DNA of 24,000 nucleotides from Nitrososphaerota archaeon (lineage in GTDB: Archaea > Thermoproteota > Nitrososphaeria_A > Caldarchaeales > JAVZCJ01). The DNA is taken from assembly GCA_038817485.1 (NCBI GenBank), contig JAWAZL010000005.1:12435-36434 (forward strand), read 5' to 3'. Below are positions 5,045-19,919 of this stretch, in pieces. The notes beneath the pieces were generated by a model. That model worked only from the letters and a program-made list of their open reading frames with translations, was not told where the DNA came from and searched no databases. Each line of letters begins with the position of its first letter. Position 1 is the stretch's first letter. A program made the translations under genes and the position numbers.

Positions 5045-6298
5045 TCAGGGTTTAACACTATATGATAATGCTATAGACCTAAGCTTCTCTGCAAAAAAAG
5101 GTAATGTTTCTAATTCTACTTCTATACCTTTTTCATTATTTGAAAATGATATTATTTTACTATACTTAAGAATATTCGATAAAATTGAGAAATTTTCTTT
5201 TAAATCTTCTAATATTGCATGAATTTTTACATAATTGTTTGAAAGCATAGAGGATAATTTATTAATTAAATCTTCAATATTTATTTTTTCAAGAGCTGAA
5301 ATAGCTACATAAGGTAAATTTAAATTTGATAATTTTTCTTCTTTTTCCCTTAATTCTTCTATAGAAATTTTATCTATTTTATTTAATACTAATAATATTG
5401 GAGTCTCAAAAACATTTATTTCTCTTAAAATTGAAAGTGAGCAATATATTTTATTTAATATTTCTTCTATACTTTCTGAAATATCAACAATTAAAATTAT
5501 TAAATCTGAATAGGATATTTCTTCTAATGTTGAATGAAAAGCTTCAATTAATAATGTAGGCAAATTTTTTATAAAACCAATTGTATCTGAAATAAATACT
5601 GGTTTACCATCAATTTTTATCATTTTAGTTTTAGGTGAAAGTGTGGTAAAAAGTAAAGGACTAATTTTTACTTCACTTTTAGTTAAAGCTTTAAAAAGTG
5701 TAGATTTTCCTGCATTGGTATATCCTGTTATTGTTATAAGTGGTATTCCATTAATTTTCCTTCCTTCTCTTAATCTTATTCTTCTTTTTCTTATAATTTC
5801 AAGCTTTTTATTAATTATAGCTATCCTTCTTTTAATATGAAGATAATAAACTTCAGCATCATACATCCCTAATCCATGAAAACCAGGCTGCTCACCTTTT
5901 TTAGCTAATCTAACTTTTTCTTTTACTCTTGGTAATTCATACATTAATTCTGCAAGTTTTATTTGAAGTTTAGCTTCAATTGAAGAAGCATGCATAGAAA
6001 AAATTTCAAGTATAAGCCTTGTACGACTTACAATAGGAACTTGAAGAACTTTAGCTAAATTGTATTCTTGAACTGGTTTAATGTCATTCTCAAAAATTAC
6101 TTTTTCTATTCCAAATTTTTTTATAGCATCTTTTAAAATTTTAACTTTTCCAGGACCAATATCATATTTTGGATGAGACTCTCTAACTTGAGTTAATTCA
6201 TATACTACTTGATAACCTGCTGTTTTACATAATTCTTTTAATTCAGCTAAATTCGATTCTTCTCCTCTTTCTCTTCTATGTACTATTGCTACTTTCAC
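5045..6298 (-). CDS. hflX: GTPase HflX
   Basis: HflX N-terminal domain (GKVKILKDAIKKFGIEKVIFENDIKPVQEYNLAKVLQVPIVSRTRLILEIF), coiled linker, then G domain with G1 GYTNAGKST, G3 DTIGF and G4 NKID. GTG start at 6298. Confidence 0.9.
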   Translation of the reverse strand: MKVAIVHRRERGEESNLAELKELCKTAGYQVVYELTQVRESHPKYDIGPGKVKILKDAIKKFGIEKVIFENDIKPVQEYNLAKVLQVPIVSRTRLILEIFSMHASSIEAKLQIKLAELMYELPRVKEKVRLAKKGEQPGFHGLGMYDAEVYYLHIKRRIAIINKKLEIIRKRRIRLREGRKINGIPLITITGYTNAGKSTLFKALTKSEVKISPLLFTTLSPKTKMIKIDGKPVFISDTIGFIKNLPTLLIEAFHSTLEEISYSDLIILIVDISESIEEILNKIYCSLSILREINVFETPILLVLNKIDKISIEELREKEEKLSNLNLPYVAISALEKINIEDLINKLSSMLSNNYVKIHAILEDLKENFSILSNILKYSKIISFSNNEKGIEVELETLPFFAEKLRSIALSYSVKP

Positions 6299-6662
6299 TA
6301 TTTTTTTCCTCCTCTATCTTCTTAATTAAATATCCAAGTGGCATAGTACTTGGATGTGAAGATTGAATATATGGCTTTAAAGTAGATGGATGAAAAGTTT
6401 CTACTTTTTCAATAATTTTTATTTTTAAAAATTTCTCAAGTTTTCTAGCCAATTCAATTGGTGGTTTAAATGCTCCTTGCTCAATTTTTTTTATTATTGT
6501 AAGTTTTTCTGAAATTTGTTTTGCTAATTCTTCTTGAGAAAGCCCCATTTTTATCCTTGCATTACGAATTATTTCTCCATAATTTTCTATAAGTTCTAAA
6601 TCTTCACCTATTAATAAATGCTCTTTTTTCTTTTTCTGCTTCTTTTCCTTATTTGCTAACAC
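6276..6662 (-). CDS. mbf1: MBF1-type HTH (XRE-family) protein lacking the usual N-terminal zinc ribbon; start codon unresolved
   Basis: HTH core YGEIIRNARIKMGLSQEELAKQISEKLTIIKKIEQGAFKPPIELARKLEKFL. By my count the first codon of the track ORF (6662-6660) reads TGG directly after a TAG. The first in-frame ATG/GTG/TTG is Met39, which is preceded by AAGGAT. The 3' end overlaps the hflX start by 23 nt. Confidence 0.7.
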   Translation of the reverse strand: MLANKEKKQKKKKEHLLIGEDLELIENYGEIIRNARIKMGLSQEELAKQISEKLTIIKKIEQGAFKPPIELARKLEKFLKIKIIEKVETFHPSTLKPYIQSSHPSTMPLGYLIKKIEEEKNSESSNST

Positions 6663-6794
6663 TATTTTTCTTTATAATTATTAATATTTAAACTTTCAAT
6701 ATTAAGTTCTTAGGAAAGTTAATTATTTAAGCTTTAATTATTTTATAATTAATGTATAGAAGGGATTGATTAAAATAAAAAAGTGGATAATAAA

Positions 6795-10383: not shown

Positions 10384-10499
10384 CTTTTATCCCCCCAACT
10401 CACCATTTAAAAGATAAATTCTTTTTATGATTTTATAGTATTAAGTTTTTATATTTAAAAATATATTTTTAATTTATTTAAGTATTACTCTTGTATAAC

Positions 10500-10609
10500 G
10501 GGGCCGTGGTCTAGCATGGTTATGATACCCGGCTCGGAACCGGGAGAAAAAATTAATATTTTCCCGAAACAATTGCCCAAAGTCGCGAGTTCAAATCTCG
10601 CCGGCCCCA
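10500..10609 (+). tRNA. tRNA-Pro (anticodon CGG), 110 nt, with an intron of about 35 nt in the variable-loop region
   Basis: GGGGCCG TG GTCT AGCATGGTTA TGAT A CCCGG CTCGGAA CCGGG [40 nt: AGAAAAAATTAATATTTTCCCGAAACAATTGCCCAAAGTC] GCGAG TTCAAAT CTCGC CGGCCCC A. The anticodon arm is intact with no 37/38 insertion. Of the 40 nt between anticodon stem and T stem, only about 5 can be the variable loop. Position 37 reads A, not the G usual for tRNA-Pro. Confidence 0.8.
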
Positions 10610-10611
10610 TT

Positions 10612-11406
10612 TTAAATAATCATTCTTTTAAAACTTTTTAATTTTCCTAAAAATGTCCCATCTAAAAGAAAAATTTCGCTTTCTTCTATTGCTTTATCAT
10701 TTATTCTTAATAATGGACTAACATATTTATTTTCTTTAGTAATATTAATTGGAGTTCCTGAAAGAAAATCATTAAAAGCAGGTAAAATTACAATTTTAAT
10801 TAATGGTTTTTTAATTTTCTTTTTTATCATTAACTTTTTTAAAATTTCCTCTCTTTTTAAAAAGAAATTTATCCAAACTTTTTGTTTAAAAGAGAAACCA
10901 AATGAAGTTTTTAATTGTATTGTTGGATGAATATGAGCAAGGATGATAGTATCTGCTTCAAGCAATATTTTTTTAGATGGCCATGCATGACCATGTATTA
11001 AACCAATCTTTTCATTATCCTCTATTAATATTCCATGGCTTGAATGAAAAAATAATTTTGATGGAATAAGTTTTTTTATAGTACCATCATGATTTCCAAT
11101 TATTAAATTTATTTTATCAACTTTTTCATTCATTAATTCAATTAATTCTGGAAGAATTTTCCATTCAAATTTAGATGCTTTAGGGATATTATGTTTTAAG
11201 TCTCCTAAAATAAATATTTCATTAGGAGAAGTTTTTTCTATAAGTTTTAAAAAATTTTGTGAAATTATTTTTGATTGAGGAGGAATTCTAATTCCTAATT
11301 CGTATAATTCATATTCAAATCCTATATGTAAATCTGCTACTAGAAGCATTCTTTTATTTTTTATAGATAATATTGCAGCTGGCTCATTTTCCACTATTTT
11401 TAACAT
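10612..11406 (-). CDS. calcineurin-like metallophosphoesterase (COG1407/PdeM-like ICC phosphoesterase)
   Basis: The metallophosphoesterase motifs occur in order: LVADLHIG, GDLKHN, GNHD, GHAWP, AHIHP. The track starts at TTG 11409; the adjacent ATG at 11406 is more likely. The stop lies 2 nt from the 3' end of tRNA-Pro. Confidence 0.8.
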   Translation of the reverse strand: MLKIVENEPAAILSIKNKRMLLVADLHIGFEYELYELGIRIPPQSKIISQNFLKLIEKTSPNEIFILGDLKHNIPKASKFEWKILPELIELMNEKVDKINLIIGNHDGTIKKLIPSKLFFHSSHGILIEDNEKIGLIHGHAWPSKKILLEADTIILAHIHPTIQLKTSFGFSFKQKVWINFFLKREEILKKLMIKKKIKKPLIKIVILPAFNDFLSGTPINITKENKYVSPLLRINDKAIEESEIFLLDGTFLGKLKSFKRMII

Positions 11407-11439
11407 CAATTATTTATATTAATAATTATTATTAAATAT

Positions 11440-11790
11440 TTGAGGGAAATGGAAGAAGAAATAAATGATTTAGAAGAATTGAAGAAAAAATATGGAGAAA
11501 AATATATTGAAGCGATTAAATGTGTTAAAGAAAAAAGAGTAAAGAAGTATATTTTCAAACCTAGTAATATTAATTTTTGGATAGTAGTTGGATATACTAG
11601 AGATTATCTTGTTTTACCAGAAGTTAATTTTTGTTCATGTAATGATTTTTTCTTTCACGTTTTAGATAAAAAATATGATTTTTGCTACCATATTTTAGCA
11701 GTTAAAATAGCTTTAAAAAATAATCTTTATGAAGAAATAATAGAAGAAGATACATGGTATGAAAAATTAATTAAGGAGTGGAAAGCATAA
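11440..11790 (+). CDS. small SWIM-type zinc-finger protein
   Basis: SWIM signature CxCx(n)CxH: FCSCNDFFFHVLDKKYDFCYHILAV. The track start is TTG 11440; an alternative ATG lies at 11449 (MEEEINDLEE). It is divergent from the phosphoesterase gene with only about 30 nt between the starts. Confidence 0.75.
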   Translation: MREMEEEINDLEELKKKYGEKYIEAIKCVKEKRVKKYIFKPSNINFWIVVGYTRDYLVLPEVNFCSCNDFFFHVLDKKYDFCYHILAVKIALKNNLYEEIIEEDTWYEKLIKEWKA

Positions 11791-11814
11791 TTTTTTATAT
11801 AAAGGATGAAGAAT

Positions 11815-11931
11815 ATGTCAATAAGCGATTTTTTTAATACTGCATACTTTGGTTTATATGGATTAATTGTTTTAGTTTTTATATTAATAATTATATATAT
11901 TTTCTATACTTCTAGAGGAGAAGAAGCTTAA
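11815..11931 (+). CDS. possible 38-aa single-TM micro-protein (below the ORF-track cutoff)
   Basis: ATG at 11815 preceded by AAGGATGA. Translation is MSISDFFNTAYFGLYGLIVLVFILIIIYIFYTSRGEEA, one clean TM helix with a charged C-terminal tail. It fills most of an otherwise empty 168-nt gap between the SWIM and RPA genes. Confidence 0.3.
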   Translation: MSISDFFNTAYFGLYGLIVLVFILIIIYIFYTSRGEEA

Positions 11932-11958
11932 ATAATACAGTAAATAGGATAATGTAGA

Positions 11959-13374
11959 ATGAAAAATTATGAAGAAATTATTTCTTTAATAATTAGTAAA
12001 AGAAAGGATTTAACAAGAGAAGAAATAGAAAAGAAAATAGAAGAAAAAATTAAAGAAAGTCGTTTTCTTAATAAACTTGGAGCAGCACTTATTTTAGCTG
12101 AAGAATTAAATGTTTTTTTAGATTCTAATATTGGAAATTTTGAAAAAGAAACTTTAACAACAAGAATAATAGATTTAGTTTCGGGATTGAAAAATGTTGC
12201 AATAATTGGAAGAGTGCTTTTTATAACTCCTTTAAGAAAAATTGGTCAACATTCATATATTTTTGGAAAAATTGGTGATAAAACAGGAAAAATTAATTTA
12301 ATTTTATGGAATGAAGTTGCTTTAAATGTAGAAAAATTAAATCTTAAGTCTGGAGATATTATTAAAATAGAAGGAGGATATGTAAAACAAAGGTTTGATA
12401 GATTGGAATTAAATGTAGGAAAGAATGGAAAAATAGAAAAATTAGAAGAAGACTATGAACAACCAGATATATTATTTCATGTTCTTCCACTTAAAGAAGT
12501 TATAGATAAGGAGGGGATTTTTGATATAAAATGTAAAATTAAATCTATTGATCCATTAAAAACTGTTAATATAAAAAATGAAATGGTAAATTTAAGAGAA
12601 GCAATCATATTTGATGATTCTTATGAAGCAAAATTAGTTGCATGGAGAGACAAAATAGATATATTCAATAATATAGGAATAAATGATGAAATAATTTTAT
12701 TTGAAGTTAAATTAAAAAATTCCGAGGTACATACAACTAAAAATACATTCATAATGAAAATCGATTCTAAAAATGTAATGGAGAAAATAAAAGAAGAAAA
12801 ATATGAAATAATTAATAATTTAAAATTAAGAGTTGTTGAAATATTTAATCGTGAAATGTATTTTAAAAATATTCTTGGTTATGATGGAAATAAAATTGTA
12901 AGAATTAAATGCTTTTTAACAAAAAATTTAGATATTAATAAAGATGATATTATTGTTATAAAAAGGGGAATAAAGAATATTAAGGGTAACAGAGAAGAAA
13001 TCATTATTGAGAAAGAGAAAGATTATTTAATTCTTAAAAAAGATATAGAAGATTTCCCATATTATAAAGCAAAGGAATATACTCCAGATGATATTATTAA
13101 AGAAGAAAACGATATTGTTATTTATGGCTTATTAAAATCAAAATCTCCTTTAACAATTGTTGAAACAAAATATGGATTAGTTGAAAAAATTTATTTCTGG
13201 ATTTCTGGAAAAGAAAAAATAATTAGTGGTATTGCTTGGCGTGAAAATGCTTTAAAAATAAATCAAATAAATATAGGAGAAAAAGTTAAACTTAAATGGG
13301 TTAATATAAAAAGAAGATTTAAAGATCTTGAAATAGAAGTTACTTCAGATAGTATAATTGAGATTATTAAATAA
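11959..13374 (+). CDS. replication protein A-like ssDNA-binding protein (multiple OB folds, no zinc finger seen)
   Basis: N-terminal helical module (LTREEIEKKIEEKIKESRFLNKLGAALILAEELNV) as in euryarchaeal RPA. Repeated OB-fold-like units follow (e.g. VAIIGRVLFITPLRKIG...GKIGDKTGKINLILWNEVA...GDIIKIEGGYV and later repeats). There is no Cys cluster. Confidence 0.65.
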   Translation: MKNYEEIISLIISKRKDLTREEIEKKIEEKIKESRFLNKLGAALILAEELNVFLDSNIGNFEKETLTTRIIDLVSGLKNVAIIGRVLFITPLRKIGQHSYIFGKIGDKTGKINLILWNEVALNVEKLNLKSGDIIKIEGGYVKQRFDRLELNVGKNGKIEKLEEDYEQPDILFHVLPLKEVIDKEGIFDIKCKIKSIDPLKTVNIKNEMVNLREAIIFDDSYEAKLVAWRDKIDIFNNIGINDEIILFEVKLKNSEVHTTKNTFIMKIDSKNVMEKIKEEKYEIINNLKLRVVEIFNREMYFKNILGYDGNKIVRIKCFLTKNLDINKDDIIVIKRGIKNIKGNREEIIIEKEKDYLILKKDIEDFPYYKAKEYTPDDIIKEENDIVIYGLLKSKSPLTIVETKYGLVEKIYFWISGKEKIISGIAWRENALKINQINIGEKVKLKWVNIKRRFKDLEIEVTSDSIIEIIK

Positions 13375-15093: not shown

Positions 15094-15172
15094 TAATTTA
15101 GAATTATTATTTTTCCCTTAAAAATATTTCTATTTATAATTATTTATTTGTATGAAAAAATATTATTAATAG

Positions 15173-15625
15173 ATGAATGAAGGAGAGAAAAATAGAATAA
15201 TTGATGATTTAGAATTAAAAATAATTAAGCTTTTAGAAAATAAACCTATGAGTGCAGCAGAATTAAGTTTAGCTTTAAATGTTTCAAAACCCTCAATTTA
15301 TGTAAGAATCAATAGATTGCTTTCAAAAGGGGTTATTGTAAAAAAGAGAATTGAGAATAAAGTTGTTTTTTGTTTATCAAAAGTTCCTGAAGAAAAACAT
15401 GAAGAAATAGAAAGTATCAAAATTAAACATAAGATTGAAATAAAAAATATTTTAGAAAAAACAATAATATATTCTCTTATATTTATAGGAATGGTGATAT
15501 TTCTTTATACAATTTATAGCGCTATAGAAAAAAGCATGCCTTTAAGAATAGTAGGTGGGCTTATCATCGCATTTCCATTATGGATGATTGCTTTATGGTT
15601 AAAAGGTAAATTTAAAGAAAGTTAA
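15173..15625 (+). CDS. membrane-tethered winged-helix transcriptional regulator (N-terminal wHTH, two C-terminal TM helices)
   Basis: wHTH LELKIIKLLENKPMSAAELSLALNVSKPSIYVRINRLLSKGVIVKKRIENKVVF, a charged linker, then TM helices TIIYSLIFIGMVIFLYTIYSAI and IVGGLIIAFPLWMIALWL. Confidence 0.7.
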   Translation: MNEGEKNRIIDDLELKIIKLLENKPMSAAELSLALNVSKPSIYVRINRLLSKGVIVKKRIENKVVFCLSKVPEEKHEEIESIKIKHKIEIKNILEKTIIYSLIFIGMVIFLYTIYSAIEKSMPLRIVGGLIIAFPLWMIALWLKGKFKES

Positions 15626-15759
15626 GAAGAATTAAGGAAAATTAAAATTAATTAATCAAAAATATTCATTCTTTAACAATTTTTAAGAAATGTTAAGCTA
15701 ATTTTTTAAAGAATGCTTTACGATAGGAATAAATCTTAGAAAATATTAATGAAAAATTA

Positions 15760-17841
15760 ATGAGAAAGAATTTATCGAAAGAAAAATTCGATACAATTTT
15801 AGATGAAGAAAGTATAAATTTCATAAGAAAAATGTTACCCTTTACTACAACATTTTTAATAATTTTTATTTTTATATTGTTTATTCCTTTTATAACAATC
15901 ATAATTTTTTTATTACCAATAATAGCAATTTTATCATTCATATCGAAAAGAATTAGAAAAAGCATAGTAAACTTTTTTAAATTACCATTCATTTTTTCAT
16001 TTAAAATAGCTCTTTTCATATCTAGCTTATTTTCAAAAAATAGAATGCAAATTATTAATAAATTTATTAAAGATAGTTTAGAAATGAATAATTTCTCTTC
16101 TAATAAAATTAAAGCAGATATAATTTTAGGATATAGATGGGTTGGTAAATCTTTTTTTGGATATCTTTCAAAAACAGGAATTAATTTTGAAAACCTTGAA
16201 AGAGGCGTAACAATTCTTGGATCTTATGGATTAAACATTATGCGTAAAATAATTAAAGAAGCTGCTATGAAAGAGATTGGAATAATTATCTTTGACTCAT
16301 CTAATCTTATTGGAACTCCTAAAAATGTTAATTCAACTAAGGTTTATAATGTTGGTATTGATACTTTAATTAATCCAATGGATGCTAAACCATTACCTTT
16401 AAAAATTTGGACAAATATTTTGGCAATGGCTATTTCTGTTGCATGCACATTGGATATTGAAGAAGCAAGTTTATTAGCAGATTTCTTTTATAATCAATAT
16501 GAATATGAAAACATATTAAGAGTTGATCAAGTAAATTTATGGAGTGATGGCTTAAATAGATTTTTTGAAAAAAGGAGAGCGGATATTTTAAAAGCAGATA
16601 TTAAAAAACTTTTATTAACAAAAATTTTTTCTGATGAAGGGAAAAATATTTTAAGCTTTTTACCAAAAAGAGGCGAAATAATATGCTTAAGAGTAGGAGG
16701 AATAGATAGAGAACAAAAAACTTTCCTTTTAATATTGTTCATAGGTGTTTTGCATCAAGTTTTAAAAAAGAAGAAAGAAAGGATTCTTATAGTTATAGAT
16801 GAGTTACAAAACCTTTTGCCTCAAATACATCTTTTACCATATGATTATAGACCTGTAATGGAAAGGTTAATGTACATGCTTAAAGAAGCATCAAAGAACA
16901 TTAGTTTATTATTGCATACTTCTGCAACATGGATAGCAAATTATGCTTACAGCATAACTCCAAATTTAATAATAACAGCTATTGAGGATCCATATATTGC
17001 AAATGAAATATCTAAAGTATTTGCATTAGGAAAAGAAGGGGACAATTTTATATTAAAACTTTCACCTCAAGAAAGCATTGTGAAAGTAATGACACATGAA
17101 GGTATGAAAACTTTCTTAATGCTTACACCTATAATAGATTTTAATACAGATATGAATATGGAAAATTTACTTGAAAAAGAAATAGAAGAGAATGTTACAA
17201 CTCTTAAAAAAGACTTTCTTAATAAAAGTGAAGTTGCATATAATATTATGAAATATGTTTTTCAATTAAAAAATGTGAATATAGCAACAATTCAAGCATA
17301 TCTTTCAGATAAATATGAATTGAATGATATAAGAGAATTAATTAAAGAACTTATTGATAAAAAATATTTAAAATTTCCTTCTATTAATGAAGAAAAAATA
17401 GAAATAACTGAAAAAGGAATTTTTGCAATTAATGAATGGGAAGAAAGGAATTTTATAAAAAAGAAAGAAGATATTAAAGAAGAAGAAATTTATTTAAAAA
17501 TTAATGAAAAACTTGTTAAAAAATTAATTGAAGCAGAGAAAAAATTTTTAAATCAAGAATGGTGCCAATCAATTATTCTATGTTATAATTTAGTTAGGCA
17601 TGTGATGATATTATTAATTTCAAATCCAGAAAAAACTAGATGGAAAAAATTTAAAGCATTATATGAAACTTTATGTATTGAAGGCTTAAAACCAATAGAA
17701 ATGGAGGATATTGAATGGTTAGAAGAAATAAAGAATAAAGCTGAAAAAGCAGATTTAAGCATAGGAGAAAAAGAAGCTGAAAGAGCATTAAAAATTGCAA
17801 AGAATGTCTTAATGAGTATTCTAAGGAAGGGGAAAAAATGA
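15760..17841 (+). CDS. membrane-anchored P-loop NTPase with an internal winged helix and a helical C-terminal tail (HerA/FtsK-like or Arch_ATPase-like; family unresolved)
   Basis: Residues about 26-95 contain 2-3 TM helices (FTTTFLIIFIFILFIPFITIIIFLLPIIAILSFI; LPFIFSFKIALFISSLF). Literal Walker A GYRWVGKS (aa 124-131, nt 16129-16152). A second HerA-like strand-loop VTILGSYGLN...IGIIIFD has no Lys. Walker B is ILIVIDELQNL (aa 342-352). wHTH about aa 485-560 (NIATIQAYLSDKYELNDIRELIKELIDKKYL...ITEKG). A Lys/Glu-rich helical tail runs to aa 693. Confidence 0.7.
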   Translation: MRKNLSKEKFDTILDEESINFIRKMLPFTTTFLIIFIFILFIPFITIIIFLLPIIAILSFISKRIRKSIVNFFKLPFIFSFKIALFISSLFSKNRMQIINKFIKDSLEMNNFSSNKIKADIILGYRWVGKSFFGYLSKTGINFENLERGVTILGSYGLNIMRKIIKEAAMKEIGIIIFDSSNLIGTPKNVNSTKVYNVGIDTLINPMDAKPLPLKIWTNILAMAISVACTLDIEEASLLADFFYNQYEYENILRVDQVNLWSDGLNRFFEKRRADILKADIKKLLLTKIFSDEGKNILSFLPKRGEIICLRVGGIDREQKTFLLILFIGVLHQVLKKKKERILIVIDELQNLLPQIHLLPYDYRPVMERLMYMLKEASKNISLLLHTSATWIANYAYSITPNLIITAIEDPYIANEISKVFALGKEGDNFILKLSPQESIVKVMTHEGMKTFLMLTPIIDFNTDMNMENLLEKEIEENVTTLKKDFLNKSEVAYNIMKYVFQLKNVNIATIQAYLSDKYELNDIRELIKELIDKKYLKFPSINEEKIEITEKGIFAINEWEERNFIKKKEDIKEEEIYLKINEKLVKKLIEAEKKFLNQEWCQSIILCYNLVRHVMILLISNPEKTRWKKFKALYETLCIEGLKPIEMEDIEWLEEIKNKAEKADLSIGEKEAERALKIAKNVLMSILRKGKK

Positions 17842-18680
17842 GATATATTTCTACTGGTTGTAAAATTCTAGATAAATTAATGGGTGGTGGTTTCTTAGCA
17901 AGTGCAATAAATCTTATTTATGGAGATCCTGGAAGTGGAAAAACAACATTAATCCTTCAAACAATTCTTAATTTATCTAAAAATTGTGAAGGAGAATTTT
18001 TCTATTTAGATACAGAACAAGGTTTTCATGAATCTAGATTATTACAAATGGCTAAAGCTCTTAATATTAATAAATCAATTTTGGAACGTATGTATATAAC
18101 TCGTGTAGATAGCTTAAGTGAGCAACATAAAATTATTATTCATAAATGGGAAGAAATAATAAAAAATGAAGGGCTTCAACCATTAGCTTTTATAGTTGAT
18201 AGTTTTGTGAATCAATATCATAAGCAACTATTAGCTGCAAAAACTGCCTTTTTAGCAAGTGAAGCTAGAGAATTACAAGGTAAGCTTGCATATCAATCTG
18301 GAAAATTAATGAGTTTAGCTATAAAGTATGATGTACCTGTTATTCTTGTATCATGGACTAAAAGTGCTGCATATAAAACATTTTTAGATAGGGAAAGGAA
18401 TAAAATGTTAAAAAAACAAGAATTATTAGATTTAGAATTAGGTTTTGATGCAAAAAGGTTTGAAGTAATAGGTGGTTCTCATCTTGAATATGTAAGTAAA
18501 ACAATATTGAGATTATTGATTTTGAAAGATTATAAACGTCTTGCAATCTTAGAAAAACATATAGCTATGCCTACTCCTAAAGTAGTAAAGCTTAAAATGA
18601 GTGAAGAAGGATTGGTTGGAGATGATGAAAAAGTATACGAATTAAATGATTACTGGAAAAAGATAATTAAGGAAACATAG
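17838..18680 (+). CDS. radB: RadB-type RecA-superfamily ATPase (RadA paralog)
   Basis: ISTGCKILDKLMGGGF...INLIYGDPGSGKTTLILQ (Walker A), FYLDTEQGFHESRLLQMAK, Walker B LAFIVDSF, ELQGKL...LAIKYDVPVILVS, and C-terminal GGSHLEYVSKTILRL...LAILEKHIAMP. All are collinear with RadB/RadA core motifs, and there is no RadA N-terminal HhH domain. The ATG overlaps the upstream stop (ATGA at 17838-17841). Confidence 0.75.
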   Translation: MRYISTGCKILDKLMGGGFLASAINLIYGDPGSGKTTLILQTILNLSKNCEGEFFYLDTEQGFHESRLLQMAKALNINKSILERMYITRVDSLSEQHKIIIHKWEEIIKNEGLQPLAFIVDSFVNQYHKQLLAAKTAFLASEARELQGKLAYQSGKLMSLAIKYDVPVILVSWTKSAAYKTFLDRERNKMLKKQELLDLELGFDAKRFEVIGGSHLEYVSKTILRLLILKDYKRLAILEKHIAMPTPKVVKLKMSEEGLVGDDEKVYELNDYWKKIIKET

Positions 18681-18765
18681 AATAAAAAAGGAAAGATTTG
18701 GAAATTTTTAAAATACAAGATTTTTTCTTAATAAATGAAAGCTTTTAAGAAAGTATTAAAATTCC

Positions 18766-18780
18766 GAAAAAGCTTATAAG
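18766..18780 (+). promoter_or_regulatory. BRE/TATA-like promoter (GAAAAAG-CTTATAAG) about 28 nt upstream of the ATG at 18805; leaderless-type geometry
   Basis: A purine-rich BRE-like run is immediately followed by TTATAA centred near 18776-18777. The spacing to the ATG equals the usual archaeal TATA-to-TSS spacing. Confidence 0.4.
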
Positions 18781-18804
18781 TCTTCATTAAAAATTTAAAA
18801 AGTA

Positions 18805-19317
18805 ATGAATGAAAAAATTGTAATATGGTTACTTAGAACGATCACGATTATAGTTATTATAACACCTTTTACATTCTATTATTTTACTTCAGGATCATTA
18901 TTAAATTTCATTATGCCAAATTTAAATTTACCTCATGGATTACCATCATTTGACTTTAGTTCAATCCGTATAGTATCTATAGATTATCTCTCTACTAATG
19001 GAGAATACATATTGAATATTAAATTGCTTAATAATGGAAATACTAGAATTGGTTTAAATAAATTAAACGTAAAAATAATAAATCCCTCTTCAAATATTAA
19101 TGGAGAAATAATTCTCCAAACACCTTTCATTTTAGAACCTGGTAAAGAAGAAAATGTACAATTTTTATTCTCATTAGAAAAAGGGTCTATTGAGGACTTT
19201 ATAATGTTACTTACACAAGGATATCCTATTAATCTTTCAGGAAATGTTACTTTAGTCTTAAATTTAATCGAAATCCCACTCGATTTTTCTATAAATAATT
19301 TTAGTTTTCCAAGCTGA
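18805..19317 (+). CDS. signal-anchored extracytoplasmic beta-rich protein (170 aa), function unknown
   Basis: N-terminal TM/anchor IVIWLLRTITIIVIITPFTFYYF. An alternating beta-strand-like pattern follows (YILNIKLLNNGNTRIGLNKLNVKIINPSSNINGEIILQTPFILEPGKEENVQFLFSL), reminiscent of Ig/LEA14-type beta-sandwiches. That fold assignment is only a guess. Confidence 0.6.
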   Translation: MNEKIVIWLLRTITIIVIITPFTFYYFTSGSLLNFIMPNLNLPHGLPSFDFSSIRIVSIDYLSTNGEYILNIKLLNNGNTRIGLNKLNVKIINPSSNINGEIILQTPFILEPGKEENVQFLFSLEKGSIEDFIMLLTQGYPINLSGNVTLVLNLIEIPLDFSINNFSFPS

Positions 19318-19322
19318 AGAAA

Positions 19323-19919
19323 ATGAAGAAATATAGAATTCTCTATTTAATTAGTGGAATTATTTTTCTAATAGTATCTATAATTGGTGGTGCTTGGTGG
19401 GAATTTATTGGAGGTATAGCTTCTAAACCATTCTTATATATTGGCCTTTCTCCATTTGATTTTAAGTTTGAACTTCTAGGTTTAGAACCCATTAAGCTAC
19501 CACCTCTTATACTGAGTTTATTCTTATGTGAAAGATTACTTGCTATAATTGGATCGATTACAATAATTATTGGATCGTTATTATATAATAAAAAATGGTC
19601 AAGAAGATTTCTTAATCTTAGACCATTCACAATGCCTATAGTATTTACTATCATAATCTTAATTGGCATTATTGTAATAATATCATTGACACAACATTTC
19701 ATACCTATTGTATCTCAAGTTATGCCAAACTTAAGGGATGCATTATTGCCATATTCAAATCAATATTTAATTATAAACCTTCATCCAATATCACATATAG
19801 ATGCTTCCTTAAAGATCAAAGTTTTATCTCAATTCACATTTAGATTTTGGATGGCTTTGTTATCAGGTTTGTTATGTTTGATAGCTTTAATTCTTCATAA
19901 AAAAGAAACTAAGAAATAA
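19323..19919 (+). CDS. polytopic membrane protein (198 aa, about 5 TM), function unknown
   Basis: It starts 5 nt after the stop of the preceding gene. Hydrophobic segments include ILYLISGIIFLIVSIIGGAWW, LILSLFLCERLLAIIGSITIIIGSLLY, MPIVFTIIILIGIIVIISL and FWMALLSGLLCLIALIL. Confidence 0.65.
   Translation: MKKYRILYLISGIIFLIVSIIGGAWWEFIGGIASKPFLYIGLSPFDFKFELLGLEPIKLPPLILSLFLCERLLAIIGSITIIIGSLLYNKKWSRRFLNLRPFTMPIVFTIIILIGIIVIISLTQHFIPIVSQVMPNLRDALLPYSNQYLIINLHPISHIDASLKIKVLSQFTFRFWMALLSGLLCLIALILHKKETKK

Follow-up and report, generated by a model that had tools for sequence, protein, structure and literature searches.

A membrane-anchored HerA-type pseudo-ATPase encoded in overlap with a RadB-like ATPase in uncultivated archaea: a possible link between DNA handling at the membrane and recombination

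CedD is a membrane-bound, VirD4-like ATPase of the HerA-FtsK superfamily that is essential for DNA import in Sulfolobales, and TedD, encoded in the Ted locus, is its counterpart in Thermoproteales; the requirement for DNA import is known for Saci_0667 and SiRe_1715 only (PMC11823120, PMC11868833). Ted loci co-localize with genes for homologous recombination (HR) (PMC9905601), and the co-localization of Ted genes with rad50 and herA is so far the sole hint at a route by which DNA imported through Ced or Ted reaches the recombination machinery. Here we describe a pair of overlapping genes, g2 and g3, in a stretch of 24,000 nucleotides (nt) from a Nitrososphaerota archaeon (assembly GCA_038817485.1, contig JAWAZL010000005.1, positions 12,435 to 36,434; hereafter, the window). 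The first gene encodes a membrane-anchored, apparently inactivated relative of CedD and HerA, and the second one a RadB-like ATPase. We propose, tentatively and at slightly less than an even chance, that the membrane adaptor g2 and the RadB-like g3 couple DNA handling or translocation at the membrane to recombination or repair.

The pair belongs to a row of five open reading frames (ORFs), g1 to g5, all on the + strand and separated by 134, -4, 124 and 5 nt, with exactly the coordinates, lengths and gaps given in a first-pass annotation, in which the five genes were taken for one module. The shared orientation of five genes is, by itself, not beyond chance; the signal that counts is synteny across lineages, and the conserved unit is the overlapping pair g2-g3 only rather than a five-gene machine. 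The features of the pair, in window coordinates, are the following.

15760..17841, + strand: g2, 693 amino acids (aa), membrane-anchored pseudo-ATPase of the HerA/FtsK superfamily (CedD-related) with a winged helix-turn-helix (wHTH) domain and a HEPN-like tail
15820..15957, + strand: transmembrane (TM) hairpin of g2, residues 21-66 (hydropathy), conserved in long-form orthologues
~15964-16032, + strand: juxtamembrane K-L-P-F segment of g2, directly after the TM hairpin, conserved in long-form orthologues
16114..17169, + strand: HerA/TrwB-like nucleotide-binding-fold domain of g2, residues ~119-470 (hhalign, AlphaFold2 (AF2), Foldseek, motif table)
16129..16152, + strand: GYRWVGKS, residues 124-131 of g2, the P-loop of the first-pass annotation; not a Walker A motif
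16204-16248, + strand: degenerate Walker A motif G-SYGLNIMRK within the HerA-fold domain
16783-16809, + strand: Walker-B-like ILIVIDELQ, retained, within the HerA-fold domain
17200..17454, + strand: winged helix of g2, residues ~481-565 (AF2 secondary structure H-H-H-E-(E)-H; weak wHTH-type matches)
17479..17829, + strand: C-terminal tail of g2, four to five helices, HEPN-like (Pfam HEPN matches in relatives; no Rx4-6H)
17825..17841, + strand: g2/g3 coupling junction, with GGAAGGGG at 17825-17832, the g3 ATG at 17838 and the g2 TGA at 17839-17841
17838..18680, + strand: g3, RadB-like RecA-fold ATPase, 280 aa
17922-17948, + strand: Walker A motif of g3, GDPGSGKTT
18186-18203, + strand: Walker B motif of g3, FIVDS
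~18351-18476, + strand: family-specific insertion of ~43 residues in g3, at the L2-equivalent position

In 10 of 13 divergent archaeal lineages, the next gene 3' of a g2-type gene encodes a RadB-like or RecA-like protein. The stop codon of the first gene usually overlaps the start codon of the second, and the adjacency persists down to ~17-20% identity between the g2 homologs. These searches read the 10 kb on either side of each copy of the pair; the loci on other contigs are designated by L numbers. The RadB-like gene is located directly 3' of g2 in the clade of the window, follows with a 4-nt overlap in a clade that is 34% identical (L001/L009-11) and with an 8-nt overlap in Bathyarchaeia (L003/4/13), and is also directly 3' of the g2-type gene in L005/6 and, as a RadB/RecA-like gene, in L027. 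In L018, the partner is a divergent RecA-like gene of a different subtype. A three-gene variant is found in L002, L007/8, L014 and L026, where a TM-anchored DUF87/CedD-like gene is followed by a gene for a pseudo-ATPase that lacks both the TM segments and the tail, and then by a RadB/RecA-like gene. Overlaps of 4 or 8 nt are present in L001, L009-11, L003/4, L014, L018 and L027, so that the translational coupling of a RadB-like gene to a membrane-anchored wHTH protein, which the first-pass annotation pointed out, is kept across very divergent archaea. The co-occurrence of the five genes, which that annotation suggested checking across archaeal genomes, holds for g2 and the RadB-like gene, extends to g1 in one other lineage only, and fails for g4 and g5. 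Fortuitous adjacency of unrelated genes would fit g4, g5 and, in most lineages, g1, which are not conserved with the pair; for g2 and g3, it is refuted by the recurrence of the synteny in 10 of 13 lineages, and we consider this explanation exceedingly improbable.

Compared with their closest relatives, the orthologues are 87% (g1), 87% (g2) and 95% (g3) identical, and the housekeeping neighbors 82-96%. A metagenome scan recovered the two closest clades only, relatives of the pair were present in the genomes of at least three species in a genome scan, and none were found in viral contigs; full-text searches of the literature found no description of a g2-g3 module. By curated thresholds or defining motifs, the pair falls outside RadB, CedD, DUF87 and the type IV coupling proteins (T4CPs), yet it is clearly derived from them.

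A hypothetical protein with a sequence identical to that of g2 (100%) is encoded in a metagenome-assembled genome (MAG) labeled 'Nitrososphaerota archaeon', and direct searches of Pfam, NCBIfam, PHROGs and PDB with g2 returned nothing meaningful. The family is tiny, with 12 cluster representatives at E <= 0.001 among 1.84 billion proteins. Orthologues and partner-linked relatives from other contigs align with g2 over the whole soluble part, and the family profile matches the TM-DUF87/HerA-like neighbor proteins (hhalign E 4.7e-6, 333 columns), setting 'RGVTILGSYG---LNIMRK' against 'RHIVVVGSAGVGKSNFVKH' such that GSYG---LN faces GSAGVGKSN. An AF2 model of residues 105-693, obtained with a 16-sequence alignment, reached a mean predicted local distance difference test (pLDDT) score of 80.6 (an earlier full-length run with a 6-sequence alignment was poor, with a pLDDT of 56). 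The top Foldseek match of this model is Saccharolobus (Sulfolobus) solfataricus HerA (4d2i, E 6e-12), followed by HerA-NurA, the DndH C-domain, TrwB (E 5e-8) and several defense HerA complexes. At the level of the fold, g2 thus contains a HerA-type nucleotide-binding domain by both Foldseek and hhalign. The signature of an active HerA/FtsK ATPase, a Walker A motif GxxxxGK[ST] in the beta1-alpha1 loop, is absent from g2: in a column table of the family, GK[ST] is missing at the structural P-loop in all 15 aligned members, and the Walker-B-like hhhhD is mostly kept. DUF87 (PF01935) has no match in g2, and only the TM-DUF87 neighbors in the three-gene variants pass its gathering threshold.

The motif GYRWVGKS was rejected as a P-loop. 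It is located N-terminal of beta-strand 1, orthologues read GKW, GTW, GGY, TSG or a gap at this position, and it is conserved only within the 87-100% clade. Since it is neither conserved more widely nor part of the fold core, whose first strand it precedes, its resemblance to a P-loop is accidental. Of the domains assigned to g2 in the first-pass annotation, the N-terminal TM hairpin, the internal winged helix and the helical tail stand, and the P-loop NTPase core does not.

The winged helix shows weak matches to Penicillinase_R (in 5 of 16 family members), MarR_2 and eS19/AspA. Pfam HEPN (PF05168) is matched by 4 of the 16 members (best E 1.3e-5), with g2 itself unmatched, and the conserved Rx4-6H motif was not found in the HEPN-like tails in the family alignments. 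In summary, g2 consists of a TM hairpin, a HerA-fold pseudo-ATPase domain, a wHTH domain and a HEPN-like tail; judged by its motifs, it is a predicted pseudo-NTPase rather than a P-loop NTPase, and, because the Walker A motif is lost throughout the family, it cannot be a motor.

The g3 start codon overlaps the g2 stop codon in the sequence ATGA, as the first-pass annotation reported, and is preceded by the purine-rich, Shine-Dalgarno-like GGAAGGGG. The RadB-type character that was also proposed there is borne out: g3 matches TIGR02237, the RadB equivalog model, with 103.7 bits and E 1.2e-29, a score below the 172.4-bit cutoff, and the g3-family profile aligns with nearly all of Thermococcus kodakarensis RadB (2cvf) at E 2e-33. 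The alignment with 2cvf is split into two blocks (residues 2-151 and 170-219 of 220), between which lies the g3-family insertion of ~43 residues. The layout is that of RadB, namely, a RecA-fold core only, with no N-terminal HhH domain and with the catalytic motifs present; Walker A, the catalytic Glu of DTE, Walker B and the QG motif are invariant in the g3 family. The protein also passes the gathering threshold of Pfam Rad51 (PF08423; 55.5 bits vs 22) and fails the cutoffs of KaiC_arch, FlaH and ArlH (18-27 bits vs 194-250). The clade is narrow, with ten full-length relatives (39-94% identity), after which the matches drop to E ~1e-11, the level of KaiC-like proteins.

Because the catalytic motifs of g3 are invariant and the Walker A motif of g2 is lost, g3 is the only credible nucleotide-using subunit of the pair. 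It is conceivable that the motor function of the T4CPs has passed to a RecA-fold ATPase, so that the dead CedD-like ring would serve as a DNA gate or adaptor and the transferred DNA would be pulled in or coated by a ring or filament of the RadB-like protein. If so, import and recombination would be physically fused outside Sulfolobales and Thermoproteales, including in Bathyarchaeia; this scenario appears distinctly unlikely to us.

The proposed coupling of membrane-associated DNA handling to recombination draws on the affinities of the g2 family and on the genes that surround its members. Among curated families, the closest one is CedD (NF053655), with all scores far short of its 600-bit threshold. 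The CedD model matches 4 of 16 g2-family members (best E 8.3e-12) and is the best match for L002_502, the short pseudo-ATPase of L002 (E 1.4e-16, 60 bits), for L003_725, the long form of L003 (E 5e-7), and for L008_872, the TM-DUF87 protein of L008 (E 6e-23).

Two distant proteins, P0108 and P0105, are true members of the g2 family with the same architecture (hhalign probability 98.8%, E 9e-17, 480 columns). The P0108 gene (L016/17) sits in a co-directional operon of overlapping genes that encode, in this order, a 121-aa TM-hairpin protein, a 932-aa CedB/VirB4-like protein, a 177-aa exported protein, a 729-aa CedD/HerA-like ATPase with four TM helices, a 105-aa hairpin protein, P0108, a 206-aa Zn-ribbon protein and Hel308. 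The ATPases beside P0108 are those of DNA-transfer systems of the Ced/Ted type, which resemble type IV secretion systems (T4SS). In L020, the start of a Hel308-like gene lies within the P0105 gene. A third family member, P0100 (L019, 61-6150), is encoded directly 3' of the type IV pilus genes T2SSE and T2SSF; no RadB-like gene was found in the remaining 580 nt of that contig. Between the pilus genes and P0100, L019 encodes an exported protein of 849 aa that has a Zn-ribbon and, at its C terminus, a degenerate, ATPase-like part. The first-pass annotation had likened the cluster, speculatively, to the Ced importer and to FtsK-type machines, and this likeness has gained substance from the HerA/TrwB-like fold, from CedD as the closest curated family and from a distant homolog in a CedB/CedD-like operon.

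The TM-DUF87/CedD-like ATPases of the three-gene variants retain GxGKS/T in L008 (314-2932) and L026 (799-3453) and are degenerate in L002 (3895-6459; GDDNAGKE, with LGEG as Walker B) and L014 (4788-6602; GEVGLAK-H). Given that L002 and L014 are degenerate and L008 and L026 intact, HerA-type sites have decayed repeatedly in this system. The motifs of the RadB-like proteins never vary, even in L002 and L014, where the upstream TM-DUF87 ATPases are degenerate.

In L005/6, a gene for an XPF/Hef-type ERCC4-HhH nuclease overlaps the stop codon of the RadB-like gene (L005, 4446-5243). In L005, PCNA is encoded ~4 kb downstream, and HepT/MNT-type toxin-antitoxin pairs (506-1101 and 5507-6756) lie on both sides of the module. 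The coupled enzymes, by lineage, are a RadA paralogue, Hel308 and XPF/Hef, which make up the classical archaeal set for recombination and fork repair. The identity of these partners is also what a membrane-tethered hub for repair or chromosome anchoring, without intercellular transfer, would predict: a dead HerA-like ring would hold DNA or broken ends and recruit a RadA paralogue or, elsewhere, Hel308 or XPF. Most loci are without transfer genes nearby, the fold is nearest to that of the repair helicase HerA, and the conservation and context of the pair are housekeeping-like, all of which speaks for such a hub. However, the rarity of the pair speaks against a general repair role, the curated family that matches best is that of the import ATPase CedD, not the repair HerA, and distant members reside in a T4SS-like operon; furthermore, to our knowledge, the archaeal repair complexes described so far have no membrane anchor. 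On balance, we hold a repair hub of this kind to be rather unlikely.

Under the coupling of DNA handling at the membrane to recombination or repair that we tentatively favor, g2 would oligomerize like its HerA and TrwB relatives and form, on the cytoplasmic side of the membrane, a ring that acts as an adaptor; it would bind DNA by the pore, the winged helix or both, and dock its dedicated RadB-like ATPase g3 there. DNA that reaches or leaves the membrane, or is held there, could then be passed directly to recombination or repair enzymes. In relatives, the DNA would cross a Ced/Ted-type, T4SS-like translocon of CedB/CedD-like ATPases, and the coupled enzyme would differ by lineage among the three identified above. 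The genes g4 and g5 would be an adjacent, separately transcribed, fast-evolving pair of membrane proteins.

Several points weigh against this proposal. The oligomeric state and the DNA binding of g2 are extrapolated from its relatives, and g2 itself has no CedD or DUF87 match, the link being made through family profiles and the fold. Genes for CedA, CedB, Ted components and pilins were found neither in the window nor beside most copies of the pair, and only three loci, all of distant members, provide the Ced-like and pilus contexts. In a mirror-tree comparison, the pairwise identities of g2 and g3 are broadly congruent, with a Pearson coefficient of 0.68 and a Spearman coefficient of 0.21 across all lineages and of 0.89 and a modest 0.39, respectively, without L018; this suggests co-inheritance, not strongly. 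Finally, defense systems, too, typically show HerA scaffolds, HEPN domains, variable partners and a rare and patchy distribution.

Indeed, the pair could function in anti-virus or anti-plasmid defense as a HerA-type scaffold with a RecA-fold sensor or effector, in which foreign DNA at the membrane would be sensed via the wHTH domain and the RadB-like ATPase. HerA_antiphage models are secondary matches of the relatives, defense HerA complexes are among the Foldseek matches, the tail is HEPN-like, the family is very rare and patchy, the partners are interchangeable (nuclease, helicase or RecA-like protein), and the L005 module is flanked by the HepT/MNT pairs. However, PADLOC yields only a match to the generic 'mad8' ATPase (g2 E 5e-5, g3 E 4e-8) and no system; in PADLOC-DB, g1 is matched through its wHTH domain only, g4 and g5 are unmatched, and the genes do not make up any described system. 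The version in the window has no toxic effector and its HEPN-like tail lacks Rx4-6H, CedD outscores HerA_antiphage for the family, the pair has a stable position among housekeeping genes and evolves in a similar way, viral contigs yielded no copies, and the partner enzymes form the classical archaeal set for HR and fork repair. We therefore regard a defense function as doubtful, and retain the transfer of DNA from the membrane to recombination or repair enzymes as our working proposal.

The remaining genes of the cluster and the putative transcription signals are as follows.

15133..15139, + strand: TATA-like box TTTATAA, ~40 nt 5' of the g1 ATG, conserved in relatives
15173..15625, + strand: g1, membrane-tethered wHTH protein, 150 aa
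~15200-15370, + strand: wHTH domain of g1 (Pfam/NCBIfam matches)
~15446-15607, + strand: two C-terminal TM helices of g1, with the motif PLWMIALWL (hydropathy)
15690..15759, + strand: nearly invariant 70-nt block 5' of g2, holding GCTTTACGAT (alignment of four relatives)
15728-15734, + strand: TATA-like AATAAAT, 32 nt 5' of the g2 ATG, within the 70-nt block
18681..18804, + strand: g3-g4 spacer, with T-runs and a conserved TTATAA at 18774-18779, 31 nt 5' of the g4 ATG
18805..19317, + strand: g4, signal-anchored protein, 170 aa, a lineage-specific neighbor outside the conserved module
19323..19919, + strand: g5, polytopic membrane protein (hydropathy), 198 aa, a lineage-specific neighbor outside the conserved module

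As annotated at first pass, g1 is a wHTH protein (Pfam TrmB/HTH_24, E 2e-7) with two C-terminal hydrophobic helices. A homolog in Bathyarchaeia (L003) combines a wHTH domain and two TM helices with the motif PLW(I/M)(L/I)ALWL, is a reciprocal best match of g1, and is encoded immediately upstream of the pair in divergent orientation; near the pair in the remaining lineages, no g1 homolog was found. Probably, g1 is a membrane-tethered transcription regulator that is tied to the pair in some lineages. A weak similarity of its wHTH domain to regulators of the Sta1/Lrs14 type (NCBIfam E 7e-7 and 1e-5, with scores well under the cutoff) is a lead only; in S. solfataricus, Sta1 activates sso0777, a radA paralogue that is inducible by damage (PMC2175319).

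The presence of two membrane-tethered wHTH proteins side by side, the recurrence of g1 with the pair in Bathyarchaeia and the weak FlaH, ArlH and KaiC matches of g3 would be compatible with a signaling or transcription switch, in which the membrane-sequestered wHTH protein g2, along with the regulator g1, is controlled by a KaiC/ArlH-like RecA-fold ATPase. However, g3 is far closer to RadB and RadA (E 1e-29 to 2e-33) than to KaiC and ArlH (E 1e-5 or weaker), g1 is missing from most lineages, and the large HerA-fold domain as well as the Hel308 and XPF partners would be left unexplained. Such a switch seems very unlikely.

No family matches were obtained for g4 in Pfam, NCBIfam and other library searches. 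The N-terminal anchor of g4 and the polytopic character of g5 (4-5 hydrophobic segments), both noted at first pass, are borne out by hydropathy only. Homologs of the two genes are present only in the 87-95% clade, at 61-65% (g4) and 73-76% (g5) identity compared with 82-96% for the neighbors, and are absent from the other 20-odd loci (tblastn, phmmer). The rapid divergence of g4 and g5 is consistent with surface-exposed or otherwise fast-diversifying membrane proteins.

In the g1-g2 spacer, overall identity is 84% vs 82-83% at third codon positions, and only the proximal 70 nt stand out; this block is probably the promoter or an operator of g2-g3. The length of the g3-g4 spacer differs among close relatives, from 124 to 290 nt; conservation is confined to the 50 nt that precede g4, and the spacer is probably an operon boundary. 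From these signals, which are called by the archaeal promoter consensus only and in a very AT-rich genome, we infer three transcription units, g1, g2-g3 and g4-g5. A five-gene operon was rejected, and with it the single five-gene module of the first-pass annotation: g4 and g5 have no homologs at other loci, evolve faster and lie behind the variable g3-g4 spacer, and g1, g2 and g4 each have a TATA-like box of their own.

The g3-g4 spacer, 124 nt long in the window, spans 214-290 nt in L012 (8844-9130), L021 (7047-7304) and L022 (12922-13135); these relatives share a conserved block of ~100-170 nt (GTACAATTCGTCTATTTTAAGCATTTCACTTC...TAATCCTCCTTTTG...) that is deleted in the window and could be a small RNA or a remnant. 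L012, a 95% relative, carries three extra genes (136, 413 and 171 aa) with no counterpart in the window between the orthologues of g5 and the P-type ATPase (10417-12820), and indels concentrate at the 3' edge of the cluster.

The G+C content is ~25% across the window, and the composition is unbroken at g1-g5. The neighbors of the cluster encode an RPA-like multi-OB protein, a class-III aminotransferase, Alba and a P-type ATPase, and NrpR, TFE-alpha, HflX, a PALP enzyme and NrdD are encoded farther out in the window; the flanking genes are housekeeping, as previously annotated. The multi-OB-fold (RPA/SSB-like) protein, 471 aa, is encoded at 11959-13374, its gene ending 2 nt from the convergent aminotransferase gene, and this gene is not syntenic with the g2-g3 pair in other lineages. 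Antisense ORFs on the - strand lie inside g2 (15693-16019, 108 aa) and g5 (19343-19702, 119 aa); both are rich in Ile, Lys and Asn, matching the AT-rich composition, and are very likely non-genes.

The pair is rare and comes from uncultivated lineages, and the function proposed for it is an inference. With CedD and TedD, the g2 family shares the HerA-FtsK superfamily fold and an N-terminal membrane anchor that is missing from some members in both families, and CedD is specifically linked to it as the best curated sequence match of the family and of the accompanying TM-DUF87 gene in the three-gene variants, as well as by the distant members that are encoded with CedB-like and CedD-like ATPases. 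Unlike CedD and TedD, every g2-family member has lost the Walker A motif, an extra wHTH domain and a HEPN-like tail are present, the gene is paired with a RadB-like gene, and the family is found in 'Nitrososphaerota'-labeled and Bathyarchaeia MAGs rather than in Sulfolobales and Thermoproteales. The pair is a concrete candidate for the hand-over of DNA from import to recombination, with a membrane-anchored CedD-type protein and a RadA-family ATPase (in relatives, Hel308 or XPF) encoded together. If the DNA-transfer reading is true, T4SS-like modules for DNA handling extend to uncultivated TACK lineages, such as Bathyarchaeia.

HerA and the defense systems with HerA scaffolds (Sir2-HerA, DUF4297-HerA, TdpAB) include the top structural matches of g2 (4d2i; 9x1m, 8xaw, 8sub, 8zir) and share with the pair the principle of a HerA ring with a dedicated partner enzyme encoded alongside. 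HerA is soluble and active and has a HAS barrel, whereas g2 is membrane-anchored with a dead P-loop, and the partner of g2 is a RecA-fold ATPase, not a nuclease or Sir2. In g2, an ATPase of the HerA type has clearly become a pseudo-enzyme scaffold, and, should the defense or repair alternative be true, the pair would still be an undescribed HerA-scaffold system with a RecA-fold partner.

TrwB and VirD4 resemble g2 in the two N-terminal TM helices, the nucleotide-binding domain and a helical insertion (Foldseek E ~5e-8, TMt 0.54-0.58). Although the TM hairpin and the fold of a T4CP are present, the P-loop of g2 is inactive, the window contains no relaxosome or T4SS genes, and a C-terminal wHTH domain and HEPN-like tail have been added, so that g2 is not a T4CP in the accepted sense. 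ArlH-ArlI offers an analogy of design, that is, a RecA-fold protein encoded with, and presumably binding to, a membrane-associated ring related to FtsK-HerA. There is no specific homology (g3 matches FlaH at E 3e-5 vs RadB at E 1e-29), and the archaellum ring ATPase is active, whereas g2 is dead.

RadB (TIGR02237; 2cvf), the closest sequence relative of g3, likewise consists of the core ATPase domain only, without the N-terminal HhH domain of RadA, and has intact catalytic motifs. Unlike RadB, g3 carries a C-terminal extension as well as the L2-equivalent insertion of ~43 residues; it falls into a narrow clade of its own, and its translation is coupled to that of a membrane protein. Whereas RadB is considered euryarchaeal, g3 is encoded in TACK-type MAGs and shows a RadB-like clade outside Euryarchaeota.

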